A DNA stretch of 62,970 nt. It comes from Candidatus Alloclostridium intestinigallinarum (GTDB lineage Bacteria; Bacillota; Clostridia; Christensenellales; UBA3700). The notes beneath the pieces were generated by a model. That model was not told the DNA's origin, did not search any database, and saw only the letters and a program-made list of their open reading frames with translations. The DNA is taken from assembly GCA_904393845.1 (NCBI GenBank), contig CAJFNB010000004.1:1-62970 (forward strand), read 5' to 3'. Position numbers and translations under genes: made by a program. Shown here in pieces: positions 2,851 to 62,970 of the stretch (position 1 is the stretch's first letter; each line of letters starts with the position of its first letter).

Positions 2851-4573
2851 CTGAATTGAAGGCGTATTTATATTCCGAATCGCGTCCGAGCGAGGAGCAG
2901 GAAAAGCGGTTTGCCGCATTTCTGAAGGGCAAATACGGCGCCGGCACGCAGCTTGAATGGGTGGAGAGCAATCTTTTCCCAGGCGGATTCCGTCTTGAAG
3001 TGGGCGACGACGTGTACGACTGGTCGGTGGGAGGCAGGCTTAACCAGCTGCGCCACCGCCTGGAACAGATAAACGGCACGCGCGACGACATCATACCTCT
3101 TATAAAGCAGGCGATAGAGGATTGGACTCCGGAGGCGCTGGCGGAAGAAACGGGCACCGTGCTTTCCGTAGGCGACGGAATAGTTTCCGCGGAAGGTCTT
3201 GCGCACGTCCAGTACGGCGAGATAGTCGTGTTCGACTGCGGCGTCAAGGGTATGGTCCAGGATCTGCGCCCCGATATGTGCGGCATAATAGTTTTCGGCG
3301 ACTGCCACGACATAACCGCGGGCAGCGTTATCCACCGCACGGGCAAGACGGCGGGCATTCCCGTAGGTCCCAACTTCGTGGGCAGGGTGCTTGACGCGCT
3401 GGGTCAGCCGATAGACGGCGAAGGGGAGATAGATGCGGCGGCGTACCGTCCCATAGAATGTCCCGCGCCCGGCATAATCGACCGCCAACCCGTAAACAAG
3501 CCGATGGAAACGGGTCTTCTGGTCGTGGATTCGATGTTCCCCATAGGCAGGGGTCAGCGCGAACTTATCATAGGCGACAGACAGACGGGTAAAACGGCGA
3601 TAGCCGTGGACACGATTCTCAACCAGAAGGGCAAGAACGTCGTCTGTATTTATGTGGCGATAGGACAGAAGGCGGGCAGTGTGGCGCGTCTTGTGGAAAC
3701 GCTGCGCAAAAACCACGCGCTGGAATATACCATAGTTATCAATGCGGGCGCGGGCGAGTCCGCACCCATGCAGTATATCGCGCCGTATGCCGGCTGCGCA
3801 ATGGCGGAATATTTCATGTATGCGGGCAGGGACGTGCTCATCGTTTACGACGATTTGTCCAAACACGCGGTGGCGTACCGCACGCTGAGCCTTCTGCTCG
3901 AACGTGCGCCGGGCAGGGAAGCGTATCCCGGCGACGTGTTCTATCTGCACTCCCGTCTCCTTGAACGCGCGGCGCATCTTTCCGACGAACTCGGCGGCGG
4001 CAGCATAACCGCCCTGCCCATAGTGGAAACGCAGGCGGGCGACGTGTCGGCGTACATTCCCACCAACGTGATTTCCATTACCGACGGACAGATATTCCTG
4101 GAAACGGAGCTGTTCTTCGAAGGTCAGCGCCCCGCGGTGAACATAGGTCTTTCCGTGTCGCGCGTGGGCGGCGCGGCGCAGACAAAGGCGGTCAAAAAGG
4201 CGGTCGGCTCTTTGAGGCTCGACCTTGCGCAGTACAGGGAAATGGAAGTGTTCATGCAGTTTGCTTCCGATCTGGACGAACTCACGCGCCGCCAGCTTTA
4301 TTACGGACAGGGACTTATGCGTCTGCTCCGCCAGCCGCAGTCCAGACCCTACTCGCAGGCGCAGGAGATAATACTTCTTATCACCGCGATGGGCAAAAAG
4401 TTCGTGGACGTGCCCGTCGACGATATAAACGTGTACGCGGAAGAGATGCTGGAATACTTCTCGACCCACGCGCCGGCGCTTTATTCCGGACTGGAAAGGG
4501 CGCAGGAACTTACGCAGGAATTGCGTGACGGAATACTGGAAACGGCGGATAAATTCCGCGCCGCTAAGCAGAA

Positions 4574-7576: not shown

Positions 7577-8986
7577 ATGGAAGAAGAAGAATCCGGGATC
7601 AAGTGGGGCGCCGTTTTCGCCGTTATCAAAAAGCGACTTATTTTTATAATCGCCATCGCCGTTGTCGCGGCGCTCGTAGCGGGACTGCTTACGGGATTTG
7701 TTTTCAACGCGGGTAAGGACACTTACACGCTTTCATTCGATCTGAAAAGTCCTTCCGGAGAGGGCAGTCTGCCCGACGGCACGGCTTTTTCCGTGCAGAA
7801 TCTGGTGTATTCCGGCAATCTGCAAAGGGTTAAGGACAGCAACGAAATGTTTGCCGGTCTGGATATAGGCATACTTTCATCGGGCGACATAACCATTACG
7901 GACAACAACAGGGCTGTCGAAGGGGAAGAAGAAAGACCGGCGGCGGACGCGCGCTATACCATCACCGCCAAAGAAAGCTGTTTTGATTCTTACGAACAGG
8001 CGGACGAATTTATGCACGCCGTGGCGGAAAGTTTCGTCACGCTTACGCAGGAGGCGCTGAACGGAAGGAATTATTCCGCCTGGGAGCAGGGCTACACGCT
8101 GGCGCCCAATTACGACGAACGCATAAACGTATTGCGTTCGCAGTACAATTACGTGCTTACCGTTTACGACGGACTGATCGCGACGCGCGCGTATGCGGAC
8201 TTTGAGGTGGACGGTTATACCGTGGAACAGCACAGGGCGCAGGCGGCGGGAGATATATCGATGCGCCTGACAGCGCTGGGCAACGAGCAGAATATTTCCG
8301 CTTACGTGCTGGGAGATTCAAACAACGCCGTACTTTACGAGGCGAAGGAACTCGAACGCCAGAAGCAGGTCAATACCGCGAAAATAGATGCGTTAAGGCA
8401 AACTCTTACGGAACTTTTGCAGACGTATAAGGACGCGGGTCTGTCCACAAGCCAGATGGATACTTTCGAATCTTTCCATGCGGACATAGCCTCTCTTACG
8501 CAGCGCAACGTGGAGATAGACGACCAGCTTGAAAGACTTTACACTTCCATAGGCTATGTGGAGCAGGAAGGCAAGTGGGTAACGGGAACGGGTCAGCTGA
8601 GCAAAGCGCCGCAGACGTTTACCGATGAAATGGAAGCCCTGCGCACCCGCATAGCGGCTGACACGCAGACCATGAGCAAGGTGGTAAGCGCGGTGTATTC
8701 GGGATTTACCGCCGCCGAGTTCAGGCAGGCGGGCGCGGAAGTGACTTCCGGCGGCACGAACACAATCTTTGTGACGGTTGCGGTGTTTGTGGTTGCGGCG
8801 TTTGCCGCGGCGTGCGTATTCGCCCTTGCCGGCTACCGTAAGCAGGTGAGCGCCGAAGAGGCCGCTCAGTCCGAAGTCAAGGCGGCAGATGGCGGCGCGG
8901 AGGAGCAGACCGCAGACGAAACGGAAGCGGCCGAACAGGCTGCCGGAAGCGCGGAATCAGGAGAAGAGAAAGGCGAAGACAAATAA
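7577..8986 (+). CDS. Two-TM membrane protein with a large coiled-coil ectodomain (Wzz/chain-length-determinant-like topology) and an acidic tail.
   Basis: AAGGAGG lies 7 nt before the ATG at 7577, in frame with ORF 7508..8986. It has N- and C-terminal TM helices. No diagnostic motif was found. Confidence 0.5.
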   Translation: MEEEESGIKWGAVFAVIKKRLIFIIAIAVVAALVAGLLTGFVFNAGKDTYTLSFDLKSPSGEGSLPDGTAFSVQNLVYSGNLQRVKDSNEMFAGLDIGILSSGDITITDNNRAVEGEEERPAADARYTITAKESCFDSYEQADEFMHAVAESFVTLTQEALNGRNYSAWEQGYTLAPNYDERINVLRSQYNYVLTVYDGLIATRAYADFEVDGYTVEQHRAQAAGDISMRLTALGNEQNISAYVLGDSNNAVLYEAKELERQKQVNTAKIDALRQTLTELLQTYKDAGLSTSQMDTFESFHADIASLTQRNVEIDDQLERLYTSIGYVEQEGKWVTGTGQLSKAPQTFTDEMEALRTRIAADTQTMSKVVSAVYSGFTAAEFRQAGAEVTSGGTNTIFVTVAVFVVAAFAAACVFALAGYRKQVSAEEAAQSEVKAADGGAEEQTADETEAAEQAAGSAESGEEKGEDK

Positions 8987-40039: not shown

Positions 40040-40077
40040 CCAAGCAAAAAAAGTCTTGTTTACTTAAAAAAGAAAGG

Positions 40078-40110
40078 GGAGAGGCGGAGTTGAGCCGGCT
40101 CTCCTTTTTT
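40078..40110 (+). terminator. Rho-independent terminator of gpmI.
   Basis: The stem GGAGAGGCGG/CCGGCTCTCC has one mismatch and is followed by TTTTTT. Flanking sequences extend the palindrome back over the stop codon. Confidence 0.75.
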
Positions 40111-40132: not shown

Positions 40133-40271
40133 GGCACCGCATATAAGGCGCGTGATACTTTGTCAAGCCGCATTTTTTCTAAGTCACGTACGCCTAGTAC
40201 GCTCCTGTCGCAAAAATACGCCTTTCCTCGTCTGACACGCCTTCTCTGCGGTGCGTTTGGTTGAGACTTTT
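40133..40271. repeat. Family-C long-hairpin repeat, copy 1.
   Basis: It shares the conserved boxes CCGC.(C/T)ATAAG, GTCAAG, apical TCACGTACGC-NNN-GTACGCTC, CCTTTCCT and GCGGTGCGTTT with the copies at 53238 and 62878. Confidence 0.85.
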
Positions 40272-40288
40272 AATAAGGCGGATAATTT

Positions 40289-40498
40289 AAAAGTATTGCG
40301 AAGATAATCGCTTCGACAAAGGGTACTCACTTAACGGCTTAATCGTTTTTATTTACGAGAAAAAGCATTGCGGAGATAATACTGTCAATCATACATTCTA
40401 CGGAAAGCATTGCGGAGATAATATTATCAAAACATACTTTTGTTACTTCAAGGCGGTTAGGGGATGCAACGTCCCACGTTGCCACGCTCCCTCCCATA
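40289..40498 (+). repeat. Family-A cluster: three head boxes (ATTGCGRAGATAAT at 40294, 40367 and 40409) and one complete module with the variant hairpin GCAACG-TCCCA-CGTTGC.
   Basis: Read directly. The variant hairpin is at 40466-40482, followed by the remnant arm CACGCTCC. Confidence 0.8.
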
Positions 40499-53174: not shown

Positions 53175-53211
53175 AAAAAAGCACCGTGTCCTGTAATATA
53201 GGTGCTTTTTT
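53175..53211. terminator. Bidirectional terminator after ung.
   Basis: AAAAAAGCACC-loop-GGTGCTTTTTT forms the core of a 31-bp palindrome at 53151-53231. Confidence 0.75.
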
Positions 53212-53237: not shown

Positions 53238-53378
53238 GGCGCCGCGCATAAGCACCCTACTGCGGTGTCAAGACAGCCGCTTACTTGGTCACGTACGCTC
53301 TAGTACGCTCCCTGCGATAAGCGATTGCCTTTCCTAGCATTAGGGCACTTCTTCGCGGTGCGTTTAGTTGCCGCTTTT
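53238..53378. repeat. Family-C long-hairpin repeat, copy 2.
   Basis: See copy 1. The apical loop is TCACGTACGCTCTAGTACGCTC at 53289-53310. Confidence 0.85.
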
Positions 53379-53559
53379 AATATGATAAAAATTTAAAATC
53401 AAACGATGTAAAACTTCGCTTTTGTAAGCATAATTTCGTGGCGGCGGACTACTTTAGCTAATAATCCCCCTTGAAGCAAGCGAAAGTATATTTATTATAG
53501 TAGTTTCTTTGCAAAATATTTAATTTTTCACCTTATTAAAGCCTCGCTGAAAAGCACCG

Positions 53560-54864
53560 CTACTTACGCAACCCCTTAGGGTAGAAGTTTTTCAAAACCC
53601 CGTTCACAACCTTCCCCCAGCCCAGGGAAATGCCGTCCGTCAGTACCAGCGCCCAGCCGTTTTCAAGTTCGGTAGGCAGCGTTTCGCCGTGAAGGTATGC
53701 CAGCACGGACTTTCCGTCGGAAGGAAGGTCGATATAATTTTTCACGTCCTCTTTTCTTAGCGCGAGCGCAAGGGAGTGGTGCGGTGTAAATCTGCCGCGT
53801 TCCATATCGCCCAGCGGCAGTCCGAAGCGCAGACATTTTATGCCGTCCAAATCGGGACAGTCCCTAGGAGTGCAATACAGGGTGTTTTCCACGCTCAGGT
53901 TATATTCGACGGCGCGGTTTAATGTTTGTTTCGCAAATGCGTCAAACGCCTTTGCCGCGTCCTTTTGCACGGAAAGTTTCTGCGTTTTGCAGGGGGCGGA
54001 ATATCCGTCCTCTTTTTTCATCACGCATACGAAATGCCCTTCGCCCTTCACCTTGTGCGGATAAAGGCGCAGTCCTATGCCGCCTATGCCGCGCGTTATC
54101 CCCGGAATATCGTCTATCGGTGTGGACGTAAGGGAAAATTCGGGGTGGTTTTGCAAAAAGTTTTTGACGTTGCATTCGTTTTCCGCGCTTTCGAAAGTGC
54201 AGGTGGAGTAAATTATTCTGCCGCCCGGACGCGTCATGCGCGCCGCCTGGTGCAGAATTTCCGCGCTCCTTTCGGCACACTTGGCGCAGTTTTCCTCGCT
54301 CCACTCTTCAACGGCAATCTCGCGCCGTCTGAACATTCCCTCGCCGGAGCAGGGCACGTCGGCTATCACTACGTCGAACGTCTCTCCCCATTTGTCCGCA
54401 AGCGTCCGCGGAGCTTCGCTAGTGACTATGCCGCATTCTATTCCGCACCGCTCTATGTTCTGCGCCAGCACTTTGGCGCGGGAGGGAACTATCTCGTTGC
54501 TCACCAGCAGAGAGGGATTGAAGCACGCCGCGTGCGTGCTCTTGCCGCCGGGCGCGGCGCACAAATCCAGCACGCGTTCCCCCGCCTTTATATCCGCCGC
54601 TTCGGCGACTGCCATGGCGGAAGGCTCCTGGATATAGTACGCGCCCGCCTCGTGCAGGGGCGATTTTCCGGGAGTGCCCGTGTAATATCTGCCGGAAGGG
54701 CACCACGGCACTTTATCCGTGCAGCATTCGGGGACAAGGTCGGTTTTAACGGTATTTATGCGCAGCGCAAGCGGCGAAGGCTTTTCGTACTCCGCCATGA
54801 ATTTTTCAAAGTCCATTTCCGCAAGGGCGCGCATACGCAGTTTGAAGGCTTCGGGTAGATTCAT
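53560..54864 (-). CDS. RsmB/RsmF-family rRNA m5C methyltransferase (NOL1/NOP2/Sun).
   Basis: It has DLCAAPGGKS, DVPCSGEG and YSTCT motifs. ORF 53560..54999 was trimmed to MNLPEAF, which sits 6 nt after TGcTATAAT. Confidence 0.8.
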   Translation of the reverse strand: MNLPEAFKLRMRALAEMDFEKFMAEYEKPSPLALRINTVKTDLVPECCTDKVPWCPSGRYYTGTPGKSPLHEAGAYYIQEPSAMAVAEAADIKAGERVLDLCAAPGGKSTHAACFNPSLLVSNEIVPSRAKVLAQNIERCGIECGIVTSEAPRTLADKWGETFDVVIADVPCSGEGMFRRREIAVEEWSEENCAKCAERSAEILHQAARMTRPGGRIIYSTCTFESAENECNVKNFLQNHPEFSLTSTPIDDIPGITRGIGGIGLRLYPHKVKGEGHFVCVMKKEDGYSAPCKTQKLSVQKDAAKAFDAFAKQTLNRAVEYNLSVENTLYCTPRDCPDLDGIKCLRFGLPLGDMERGRFTPHHSLALALRKEDVKNYIDLPSDGKSVLAYLHGETLPTELENGWALVLTDGISLGWGKVVNGVLKNFYPKGLRK

Positions 54865-62823: not shown

Positions 62824-62857
62824 AGGGACGGCGTGCTTTGGCGCCGTTCTTTTTTTT
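62824..62857 (+). terminator. Rho-independent terminator of the hydrogenase gene.
   Basis: The stem GGACGGCG/CGCCGTTC is followed by TTTTTTTT. Confidence 0.75.
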
Positions 62858-62877: not shown

Positions 62878-62970
62878 GGCGCCGCGCATAAGCACCCTCC
62901 TGCGGTGTCAAGTCACTCATTTTGAGAAATCACGTACGCCAAGTACGCTCATTCCCAAAATGAGCGCCTT
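62878..62970. repeat. Family-C long-hairpin repeat, copy 3 (truncated by the window end).
   Basis: The 5' half is nearly identical to copy 2. The apical loop is TCACGTACGCCAAGTACGCTC, and the inner stem is CTCATTTTG/CAAAATGAG. Confidence 0.8.

Follow-up and report, generated by a model that had tools for sequence, protein, structure and literature searches.

The hairpin element at positions 53,238–53,363 on the minus strand of the window (the whole 62,970-nt stretch of DNA analysed here) is best read as a member of a large repeat family, interspersed, palindromic and non-coding, of the REP/BIME, REPIN, ERIC and Bru-RS class. The form under selection is a single strand, complementary to the plus strand of the window and thus to the coding strand of the adjacent gene. 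The element is non-autonomous, with no gene travelling with it. From sequence comparison we give roughly even chances to a REP/BIME/ERIC-class repeat that is acted on as a folded single strand, probably of DNA.

Three copies of the hairpin in the window

A covariance model (R1) was built from copies in other genomes together with two of the window copies. When searched against the window, R1 returns exactly three matches, all on the minus strand, with no others at E ≤ 10. Copy 1 (40,133–40,256; 94.5 bits, E 4e-23, model positions 1–125) and copy 2, the copy under study (75.6 bits), are full length. Copy 3 (62,878–62,970; 53.6 bits, model positions 32–125) has its 5′ end cut by the end of the window, and a complete copy-3 element is present at the same hydrogenase site in six strains (L116–L121). 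Copy 1 lies between the iPGM and peptidase M28 genes, copy 2 between the UDG (plus strand) and RsmF (minus strand) genes, and copy 3 downstream of an [FeFe]-hydrogenase gene, giving a density of ~3 per 63 kb, or about 1 per 20 kb.

The preliminary description of this DNA had placed three same-orientation copies at these sites, and R1 finds precisely these three; the covariance search of the window and of other genomes that it suggested also recovers many copies elsewhere. Its ends for copies 1 and 2 (40,271 and 53,378) do include the hairpin, but the last ~15 nt are part of a conserved, species-specific AT-rich tail. The apex pattern GTACGC-N2-6-GTACGC is observed three times in the window against 0.12 expected, a count reached in 0 of 100 shuffles. 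The apical modules, all on the minus strand, lie at 40,184–40,204 (copy 1), 53,289–53,310 (copy 2) and 62,930–62,950 (copy 3); on the minus strand that of copy 1 reads GA-GCGTAC-TAGGC-GTACGT-GA.

A near-invariant tip on covarying stems

The unit is an imperfect hairpin of 100–130 nt, and nearly every apex motif forms the tip of one. Plain MAFFT alignment with RNAalifold recovers just the 6-bp apex stem, the remaining stems being too variable for sequence alignment; the consensus structure was derived from per-sequence folds, followed by covariance-model re-alignment. R1 matches comprise 139 copies in 100 sources, the set used here for pairing, covariation and stop-codon counts. Pairing is found in 78.9% of cells across these copies, compared to 52.9% when shuffled and 33–41% when slid. 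Double-sided changes occur at 49 of the 52 pairs, and covariation scores 0.496, a value that falls to 0.146 on shuffling and to about 0.1 on sliding. The covarying inner and middle stems first noted in the window are as described there and hold for the 139 copies, and such very strong covariation supports the earlier proposal of selection on structure, be it as an RNA or as a DNA hairpin.

At the tip, 6 bp of stem carry a U-n-n-G-C loop and are flanked on both sides by tandem G.A/A.G pairs; the sequence of the tip (GA-GCGTAC-TnnGC-GTACGT-GA) is nearly invariant between phyla. The G.U pair closing the apex stem is kept in 131 of 139 copies, and the stem itself covaries, from GCGUAC/GUACGU to GUGUAC/GUACAU, GCAUAC/GUAUGU or GUUUAC/GUAAAU. 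The internal loop between P2 and P3 holds a second G.A/A.G motif. P1, the outer stem, and P3, the inner one, may vary freely in sequence provided pairing is kept. The termini are the most variable part (model consensus ends TTTGACCGC...GCGGTCAAA), with 4–6 pair types per pair in the terminal helix, which differs between copies of one genome. Conserved boxes reported for the window copies are present, but most are lineage-specific; the family-wide constants are only the apical stem-loop, the two G.A/A.G flanks and the internal-loop motifs (5′ C-AA-G-GA, 3′ GA-C-ACA-G).

The folded strand is antisense to the adjacent gene

Folded as RNA, the minus strand of copy 2 reaches -62.3 kcal/mol (z -4.6) compared to -47.2 kcal/mol (z -0.9) for the plus strand, and that of copy 1 reaches -57.7 kcal/mol (z -6.4) compared to -40.0 kcal/mol (z -1.8). 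The ranking is unchanged with DNA parameters. Of 118 copies folded across the family, 105 favour the minus-sense strand, the median gap between strands being -11.7 kcal/mol. Isolated mismatches, read on the complement of the window plus strand, comprise 84 G.U versus 16 A.C (binomial p 2.6e-12, a value inflated by shared descent), and purine-purine mismatches (G.A, A.G, G.G) outnumber pyrimidine-pyrimidine mismatches on that strand by 91 to 16. The minus-strand clue drawn earlier from three C.A mismatches is correct. The plus strand of the window has a positive GC skew, so that the folded strand is the leading-strand template.

Many copies start at stop codons

We scored a copy as at-stop when an ORF on the opposite strand, 100 codons or longer, had its stop codon between -6 and +15 nt from the element's 3′ boundary. 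This arrangement is found for 60 of the 139 copies, while its mirror image, a same-strand ORF at the 5′ boundary, is found for none (0/139). All three stop codons occur at the at-stop copies (TAA 30, TGA 24, TAG 6). Usually the element begins right at the stop codon of the gene on the other strand or overlaps with it, leaving the protein unaltered, and the 3′ end of the folded strand passes directly into antisense coding sequence. Using a crude ORF caller, 107 of 126 copies are intergenic; by the same caller, 20 copies have a same-strand gene upstream and an opposite-strand gene downstream, versus 31 with both neighbours on the opposite strand. Flanking genes are of housekeeping type (ychF, queA, pgm, ispF), and synteny around the element is stable (BacA-YchF-ArgS, RuvB-QueA-Tgt).

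An inverted duplication of the coding end was considered as a general insertion signature and rejected: ~7% of at-stop copies have at least 10 of 15 matches versus 0.8% of controls, and mean matches are 6.65 versus 6.11. Where such a match does arise, it co-varies with the coding sequence.

Distribution across bacteria

A scan of 185,579 species genomes revealed at least 114 loci with the element. Carriers among the matches listed include Christensenellales, other Clostridia, Alphaproteobacteria, Myxococcota, Bacteroidota, Nitrospira and Desulfobacterota, and R1 gives 31 further matches in 22 other sources. Alphaproteobacterial members, including one in Brucella tritici (L069), measure 100–103 nt, and their apical loop is often CTAG or TTAG. 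A phage origin was rejected, as an exact apex match turned up only once among 2.9 million viral contigs and the covariance model does not confirm it.

The preliminary description could match the motif to no known RNA family. This is borne out by Rfam 15, which has no match in the window at the gathering threshold (and nothing overlaps the element at E ≤ 10) and leaves the element unmatched in 12 loci from six phyla, where the sole match is an unrelated SAM riboswitch. Group II intron domain V, the sarcin-ricin loop, K-turns, SRP and CsrA sites appear to share short resemblances at most and were set aside, and our literature search on the apex motif and comparable repeats found nothing specific.

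Gain, loss and exchange of copies

Presence/absence polymorphism is seen at three orthologous sites (ychF, queA and UDG-RsmF). At one and the same stop codon, sister lineages may have no unit, one unit or tandem units, the protein staying as it is. The YchF-ArgS spacer measures 81 nt when empty, 186–194 nt with one unit and 347 nt with two, YchF always being 360 aa long. Empty QueA-Tgt spacers measure 54 or 102 nt, and filled ones hold arrays; QueA keeps its native TGA stop and C-terminal pattern across alleles, with one or two conservative differences. Between strains, the UDG-RsmF spacer is 51, 315, 386 or 633 nt. Arrays form head to tail, with tandem units 0–5 nt apart. The empty ychF site TTTGAC-AAAAG resembles the element termini TTTGAC...GTCAAA, a single case with alleles from diverged species.

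Inner stems are also exchanged between strains. Across six strains whose hydrogenase proteins are identical, the site carries three distinct P2/P3 ‘alleles’, resembling window copies 1, 2 and 3. In a stretch of about 660 nt that is otherwise near-identical, one 4-nt cluster of changes stays within the apical loop. Furthermore, the far-side flank mirrors the last 11–12 nt of queA and co-varies with two coding differences between loci L075 and L145.

Terminators and repeat modules beside the window copies

Each window copy follows a plus-strand terminator. The iPGM intrinsic terminator (40,072–40,110; -22.1 kcal/mol, z -4.1, then a T run) lies 23–25 nt upstream of copy 1, the UDG terminator (53,175–53,211; plus fold -13.9 kcal/mol) ~28 nt upstream of copy 2, and the hydrogenase terminator (62,826–62,857; -15.9 kcal/mol, z -4.9, then eight T) ~20 nt upstream of copy 3. 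The terminators noticed earlier are real, at 20–28 nt, but this spacing is a property of the lineage and not of the family: around copies in other genomes no terminator association was found outside the window's lineage, and elsewhere the element abuts stop codons. The UDG terminator is the sole convincingly bidirectional one of the three, both strands folding at ~-13 kcal/mol (z ~-4.2) with a U run each; in the minus direction, those beside copies 1 and 3 are poor.

Copy 1 is followed by the species-specific AT-rich tail module (40,257–40,330; GTTGnnnCTTTTAAnAAGG..AATTTAAAAG..ATTGCGAAGA), and the same module stands after copy 2 (53,364–53,425). It is conserved between the two and recurs, sometimes doubled, in strains L116–L121. 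An opposite-orientation remnant of the element (GAAAAGCACCGC, 53,549–53,560, plus strand) abuts the RsmF stop codon; strain L128 retains more of it, CACCGCAGTAGGGTGCTTATGCGCG, which matches the 3′ half of the folded strand of copy 2 exactly. In the window's species the copies sit just past terminators and are joined to further repeat modules in a BIME-like mosaic.

Searches for a partner gene and for signals of transcription

A Pfam scan of 19 window ORFs yielded housekeeping genes, with no transposase, recombinase or RAYT among them. An all-against-all BLAST of 3,064 ORFs from the 114 listed loci revealed no family tied to the element and no recurring integrase. At one locus (L109), inverted copies enclose a gene, but this encodes a Y-family DNA polymerase and not a transposase, and the idea of an autonomous element was dropped. 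Upstream of the folded strand, -10-like hexamers lack the positional peak expected of an own promoter, and no T enrichment follows the element on either strand, as an own terminator would require. That the element itself is an intrinsic terminator was rejected, as it has no adjoining U tract and terminator-like sites are not positioned relative to it.

Comparison with known repeats and recombination sites

REPs are found mainly downstream of genes, their termini often supplying the stop codon (PMC3733652), and single-stranded DNA is the form in which hairpins of the REP and IS200 type are processed (PMC6006769). The present element resembles REP/BIME sequences in being extragenic, of high copy number and hairpin-forming, in lying mostly downstream of genes with a terminus at the stop codon, in forming mosaics with other motifs, and in the persistence of diverged copies within one genome. 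It differs in size, REPs being 20–40 nt and tagged at the foot by GTAG or CGTC, whereas the hairpin here is 100–130 nt and neither tag is present at the foot of its alignment consensus. REPINs, built of two inverted REPs, conserve the arms and vary the loop, while here the tip is conserved and arms P1/P3 vary. REP sequences are species-specific, whereas this tip is common to several phyla, and the cognate RAYT of REPs and REPINs, a single-copy gene of the same genome that its repeats usually flank, has no counterpart among the 19 window ORFs scanned. To our knowledge, strict antisense orientation to the adjacent gene has not been described for REPs.

The attC sites of integrons offer a second parallel. 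These are imperfect palindromes of 57–141 nt in which structure, not sequence, is conserved, and recombination acts on one folded strand, the one opposite the coding strand of the ORF upstream. The site starts at the stop codon of that ORF or overlaps it, and in chromosomal arrays the folded strand is the leading-strand template. The likeness lies in the antisense, stop-codon position of the folded strand (60/139 versus 0/139 for the mirror arrangement). However, in attC sites the base of the stem (RYYYAAC / GTTRRRY) is conserved and the tip variable, whereas the base of the element has no AAC/GTT core sites and its termini vary widely. Furthermore, the element stands beside housekeeping genes in stable synteny, not cassettes, with no integrase nearby; integrons are reported to be rare or absent in Clostridia and Alphaproteobacteria, both carriers of the element.

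ERIC/IRU, Correia and RUP elements are likewise imperfect palindromes of about 100–170 nt, intergenic and insertion-polymorphic, co-transcribed with their neighbours and with orientation-dependent effects. MITEs keep terminal inverted repeats that match a parent IS, together with target duplications, and their families are genus- or family-bound; here the termini are least conserved and the family spans phyla. A MITE with conserved terminal inverted repeats and target-site duplications, the outcome named earlier as speaking against a selected structure, is not what we find, the termini being the most variable part; between the diverged empty and filled alleles no duplication is evident. Bru-RS1 and Bru-RS2 of Brucella are palindromic, 103 and 105 bp long, intergenic and present in more than 35 copies, and form a hot spot for IS711 insertion at YTAR (PMC3163539, PMC2266754). 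Alphaproteobacterial members of the present family agree with their description in size, palindromy and a YTAR-type loop (CTAG/TTAG), a possible link. Should it hold, some members were already noted 30 years ago, while the cross-phylum extent and strand rule of the family went unnoticed.

Folded DNA, antisense RNA or mRNA terminus

As folded single-stranded DNA, the element would present its apical stem-loop to a trans-acting protein, candidates being a nuclease of the HUH/Y1 type, such as serves REPs, or a recombinase, such as serves attC. The hairpin may be extruded, cleaved at its tip and then repaired from other copies; this proposed route could account for strains that share identical flanking genes yet carry different inner stems at one locus. 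Templated repair within the hairpin would keep the arms complementary and may occasionally draw the last codons of the gene into the stem. Several observations count against folded DNA: no partner enzyme appears in the window ORFs or the 114 listed loci; the conserved tip and variable termini are the reverse of REPINs, MITEs and attC; tandem G.A pairs, internal loops rich in purines and a conserved closing G.U are all hallmarks of structured RNA; and the 60:0 gene orientation is explained by no known mechanism of single-stranded-DNA transposition. IS200/IS605-type single-stranded-DNA transposases act on the lagging-strand template (PMC6006769), while the folded strand here is the leading-strand template.

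The RNA-like features raise the possibility, which we hold to be clearly less probable, of a minus-strand structured non-coding RNA family, antisense to the 3′ end of the neighbouring gene. Its GA-flanked apical hairpin and AAGGA-containing internal loop would be putative protein-binding sites, and the RNA might target the convergent mRNA end in cis or, in trans, serve as a sponge for protein. The strand-specific G.U, G.A and G.G pattern with its conserved G.U closing pair, the two tandem G.A/A.G motifs amid purine-rich loops, and a structure kept between phyla with free stem sequence, as in bona fide RNAs, all favour such a transcript, and in the 20 copies with a same-strand gene upstream and an opposite one downstream the element would form the 3′ UTR of the convergent gene. 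Minus-strand RNA of copy 2 would also run into the bidirectional terminator, but the minus-direction terminators beside copies 1 and 3 are poor, and the family lacks a conserved promoter at fixed distance, a terminator or U tract, and an Rfam match. An independent transcript would have no defined end, as its 3′ end adjoins antisense coding sequence. The density of one copy per ~20 kb, the arrays, presence/absence polymorphism and inter-copy conversion are typical of DNA repeats. Rather improbable, in our view, is a third reading, in which the hairpin ends the sense mRNA of the upstream gene from its stop codon, serving message stabilisation, termination without a U tract, or modulation of translation termination or coupling, with the antisense-strand bias as a by-product. 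Starting at or overlapping the stop codon in 60 of 139 copies implies co-transcription with the gene, each of the three stop codons occurs, folding of the plus-sense RNA remains strong (mean about -50 kcal/mol), and the sense strand displays CUCCUU-like loops reminiscent of anti-Shine-Dalgarno sequence. Liang, Rudd and Deutscher reportedly observed in 2015 that ribosomes stall at REPs lying no more than 15 nt from a stop codon. Roles in the mRNA of the kind listed above, exerted as RNA elements, have been proposed for REPs (PMC3733652). However, an mRNA hairpin should carry its G.U and purine-purine mismatches on the sense strand, and these are found on the other (84:16 and 91:16); the conserved closing pair, G.U in antisense, turns into mismatched C.A in the mRNA, the element has no T tract after it in sense orientation, and the window copies lie beyond functional terminators and thus largely outside the mRNA.

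It is very improbable that the copies are decaying palindromic debris with no selected single-stranded form, shaped by quasi-palindrome correction and mutational asymmetry. Conversion within the hairpin does seem to occur, as the queA coding end and far flank co-vary, mutation clusters are loop-confined, and the common mismatch classes all keep the minus-strand G, for which strand-biased loss of C could in principle account. Mere decay is contradicted by a tip, GA motifs and internal loops that stay near-constant in distant phyla while the stems vary, by the 60:0 orientation rule, and by a bias opposite to the GC skew of the window.

Possible significance

Interspersed palindromic repeats are usually treated as species-specific, and we did not find a cross-phylum tip, an antisense strand signature and a 60:0 stop-codon rule described together. 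We consider it a tentative, rather unlikely prospect that the family represents either a cross-phylum system that has escaped recognition, with the GA-bracketed apical hairpin read by a conserved nuclease or recombinase, or an undescribed, widespread antisense RNA guarding the 3′ ends of genes. Under the former, the element would be installed at stop codons, always on the template strand and coupled to transcription direction, akin to an attC or rolling-circle-origin site without an integron; the partner protein, if it exists, would be a broadly conserved reader of single-stranded hairpins. In gut Clostridia, the element makes strains differ in structure, spacers between identical genes ranging from 51 to 633 nt, and provides a ready-made marker for strain typing. 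It is also a likely cause of contig breaks in metagenomes, as several loci end inside a copy.

The window holds three copies of a cross-phylum hairpin family

We represented the hairpin repeat by a covariance model (R1; 125 positions, 52 pairs), the source copies coming mostly from other genomes. A search of the 63-kb window with R1 gave exactly three matches at E ≤ 10, all on the minus strand: copy 1 at 40133-40256 (94.5 bits), copy 2 at 53238-53363 (75.6 bits) and copy 3 at 62878-62970 (53.6 bits, truncated where the window stops). The apex pattern GTACGC-N2-6-GTACGC likewise occurs three times in the window, against 0.12 expected by chance. These are the copies, in the same places and single orientation, that a preliminary description had recognised from sequence; its finding is real and its reasoning sound. 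The left ends it assigned stand, while its right ends are about 15 nt too long, taking in a conserved AT-rich tail that is a trait of the species and not of the family. The plus-strand intrinsic terminator it placed ahead of each copy is genuine, at 20-28 nt. Genes beside the copies encode iPGM and peptidase M28, UDG and RsmF, and an [FeFe]-hydrogenase.

Scanning a single genome of each species for exact matches to TCACGTACGC-N3-4-GTACGCTC returned at least 114 loci. Among the loci listed, gut Christensenellales and other Clostridia form the majority, with further carriers in Acidaminobacter, Rhizomicrobium, Brucella tritici, Allorhizobium, Holosporales, Nannocystaceae, Alistipes and other Rikenellaceae, Nitrospira, Nitrospinota, Syntrophales and Thermodesulfobacteriota. 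In nearly all of those listed the motif caps a 100-130 nt hairpin with differing stem sequences; a few, e.g. in Stenotrophomonas and Cyclobacterium, appear to be coincidental. R1 located 139 copies in the window and 99 loci, plus another 31 in 22 additional loci; the exact search motif is missing from 32 of the 139, which hence reveal true variation at the tip. The family is very large and spans phyla. Neither the window nor 12 representative loci gave a match to Rfam 15, in line with the preliminary description, which could not assign the motif to an RNA family. Several metagenome contigs (L002, L035, L063, L110, L065) end inside a copy, suggesting that short-read assemblies tend to break off at the repeat. 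A SAM riboswitch (85.5 bits; L023, 4979-5101) about 170 nt from the element in an Acidaminobacter genome is probably unrelated to it.

Stems covary around a constant tip

Within the 139-copy alignment, which is model-fitted and so leans towards the R1 structure, 78.9% of cells form standard pairs (52.9% in a shuffled and 33-41% in a slid control), and the covariation score is 0.496 (0.146 and about 0.1, respectively). Double-sided changes occur in 49 of the 52 pairs, upholding the view that stem covariation implies selection on structure, and independent single-sequence folds back the same hairpin. Positions 2 and 3 of the apex stem vary compensatorily, from GCGUAC/GUACGU to GUGUAC/GUACAU, GCAUAC/GUAUGU or GUUUAC/GUAAAU. 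Constant at the tip are the UAC...GUA core, the U-n-n-G-C loop and the flanking G.A/A.G pairs, a bracket that recurs in the internal loop between the middle (P2) and inner (P3) stems (R1 consensus 5'-C-AA-G-GA...GA-C-ACA-G-3'). A variant-tip sub-family (L005, e.g. 2971-3097, L010 and L049) carries CAAC-CCU-A-AUUUAC...GUAAAU-GA-GUUG, in which a 3-nt bulge ahead of the G.A position gives a K-turn-like layout.

The folded strand is the template strand of the adjacent gene

Folded as RNA, the minus strand reaches -62.3 kcal/mol for copy 2 (z -4.6) and -57.7 for copy 1 (z -6.4), compared to -47.2 (z -0.9) and -40.0 (z -1.8) for the plus strand; DNA parameters rank the strands identically. Of 118 copies drawn from many genomes, 105 fold more stably as the minus-sense strand, with a median difference of -11.7 kcal/mol. 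To treat both strands alike, 111 copies were folded with G.U pairs forbidden. Isolated 1x1 mismatches on the folded strand are then G.U-type in 84 cases versus A.C-type in 16, and G.A, A.G and G.G together number 91 versus 16 pyrimidine-pyrimidine. The nominal p of 2.6e-12 is inflated, the copies being related by descent; the bias is seen again in unrelated lineages. The apex stem is closed by G.U in 131/139 copies and by A-U in 7/139, this G.U being a C.A mismatch if read on the opposite strand. The strand suspected from C.A mismatches in the window copies is thus the one that folds.

By a crude ORF caller, 107/126 copies are intergenic. We scored a copy as lying at a stop if an opposite-strand ORF of at least 100 codons had its stop codon -6 to +15 nt from the element's 3' boundary. 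This holds for 60/139 copies, mostly at -5 to +2 (TAA 30, TGA 24, TAG 6), versus 0/139 with a same-strand ORF ending at the 5' boundary. Hence the element typically starts at a gene's stop codon, and selection acts on the template strand of that gene. Clostridia, Alphaproteobacteria, Syntrophales and other groups conform to this rule. Firmicutes genes are usually 75-85% co-oriented with replication, so some exceptions would be expected if orientation tracked replication rather than the gene. The window has identical polarity, with the gene on plus, the folded strand on minus and a terminator in between; a remnant of an opposite-orientation element adjoins the RsmF stop codon, again antisense to its gene. 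GC skew is positive over the whole plus strand (1-62970), which carries nearly all genes, placing the window on one replichore and the three folded strands on the leading-strand template.

Mobility and recombination of the element

In relatives of locus L054, BacA-YchF-ArgS synteny is constant and YchF always has 360 aa, while the YchF-ArgS spacer measures 81 nt without the element, 186-194 nt with one and 347 nt with two in tandem. The element begins at or overlaps the native ychF stop (GTT-TGA-C|GG..., GTT-TAA-G|CG... or GTC-TAA|TTTAAG...). RuvB-QueA-Tgt behaves likewise, with empty spacers of 54 or 102 nt versus arrays when filled; filled sites retain the native TGA and the usual QueA C-terminus. 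Many loci contain head-to-tail arrays whose units are spaced by 0-5 nt and differ in their inner stems. These sites establish mobility. The empty ychF site GTT-TGA-CAAAAG (L140 1780-1795, compared with L134) resembles the joined element termini TTTGAC...GTCAAA, and in this single case may reflect microhomology or an att-like core.

Six metagenomic strains encode an identical 485-aa hydrogenase, and all carry the element at the copy-3 site with the same outer stem (P1); P2, P3 and apex come in three versions, resembling window copies 1, 2 and 3. At the copy-1 site, L133 differs from window 40196-40199 by a four-substitution cluster (GCCT to AGAG) confined to the apical loop, with just four other differences over ~660 nt around it, which suggests that the loop is especially prone to breakage or mutation. 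The last 11-12 nt of queA are mirrored beyond the element (L075 2293-2308 with about 2430-2446; L145), and the mirror copy follows two coding differences between these two species (ACTTTTATTCTC with GAGAATAAAAGT; CTTTCATTATC with GATAATGAAAG). Inverted symmetry reaches 11-14 nt into coding sequence in L075, L049 (14/15 nt mirrored) and L089. Such symmetry occurs in about 7% of at-stop copies versus 0.8% of controls, ruling it out as a general trait. From strain exchange, loop cluster and arm homogenisation we infer that tip-centred repair may be templated by other copies, and that templated correction within the hairpin would keep the arms complementary; this reading fits the formation of DNA hairpins or cruciforms in vivo.

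Among strains whose UDG is identical, the UDG-RsmF spacer (compare window 53549-53560, L122 and L128) has a length of 51, 315, 386 or 633 nt. The 51-nt allele is not a virgin site: its terminator stem GCACCC/GGGTGC runs on into GGGTGCTTATGCGCGG, the 3' half of an element antisense to RsmF, suggesting deletion between AAAAGCACC repeats. An AT-rich, species-specific module (GTTGnnnCTTTTAAnAAGG..AAATTAAA..ATTGCGAAGAAAA..GTATAATC) always comes next after the hairpin in window coordinates (window 40257-40330 and 53364-53425; L117 7660-7760); it contains promoter-like plus-strand hexamers (TTGCGA-N17-TATACT, TTTACT-N16-TATAAT), and one spacer may hold two. Beyond the window end, downstream of copy 3, the six strains (L116-L121, about 7760-8000) carry GC-rich ~32-nt tandem units (CGGCTCGCCGCGGTGGAGCGCCACGCGCTCC) that each contain a short GGAGCGC/GCGCTCC hairpin and vary in number between strains that share the hydrogenase. 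Hairpin, AT-rich module and ~32-nt units form a BIME-like mosaic.

Possible roles and relation to known repeats

The 60:0 orientation at stop codons, together with selection on the template strand, is the central puzzle. An antisense RNA would match the folded strand in sense. The search for its transcription unit showed no positional peak of -10-like hexamers upstream of that strand and no T tract downstream; terminator-like sites in other genomes keep no set position relative to the element, promoter-like matches near the window copies lie at inconsistent distances, and of the three adjoining terminators only that of copy 2 is predicted to serve in the minus direction. No transcription unit belonging to the repeat was found, and we regard antisense RNA as rather unlikely. 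A role in the sense of the mRNA, for which the position behind a stop codon would be suitable and the folding preference lies on the other strand, appears less probable still. We give about even chances to a single-stranded DNA form whose tip would be recognised by a trans-acting protein. No recurrent protein family was found near the element, the 19 window ORFs are housekeeping genes and viral contigs are essentially without it.

In class the repeat belongs with REP/BIME, REPIN, ERIC and Bru-RS repeats, and the window element is apparently part of an undescribed cross-phylum variant of interspersed palindromic repeats. A survey of REPs reports that they, too, favour sites downstream of genes, and that REP termini supply stop codons (PMC3733652); the processing of REP and IS200-type hairpins takes place on single-stranded DNA (PMC6006769). 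Membership of REP/REPIN fails for want of a GTAG or CGTC tag, of MITEs on non-conserved termini, and of attC on the absence of R''/R' cores. In function the nearest parallel is the integron attC site, which acts as a folded bottom strand that is complementary to the ORF upstream of it and overlaps that ORF's stop codon, although the repeat has neither cassettes nor integrase and conserves its tip rather than its base. The alphaproteobacterial members, including the Brucella tritici copy, are 100-103 nt long and may, by size, palindromy and a YTAR-type loop, correspond to Bru-RS1/2, which measure 103 and 105 bp and are frequent targets of IS711 insertion at YTAR (PMC3163539).
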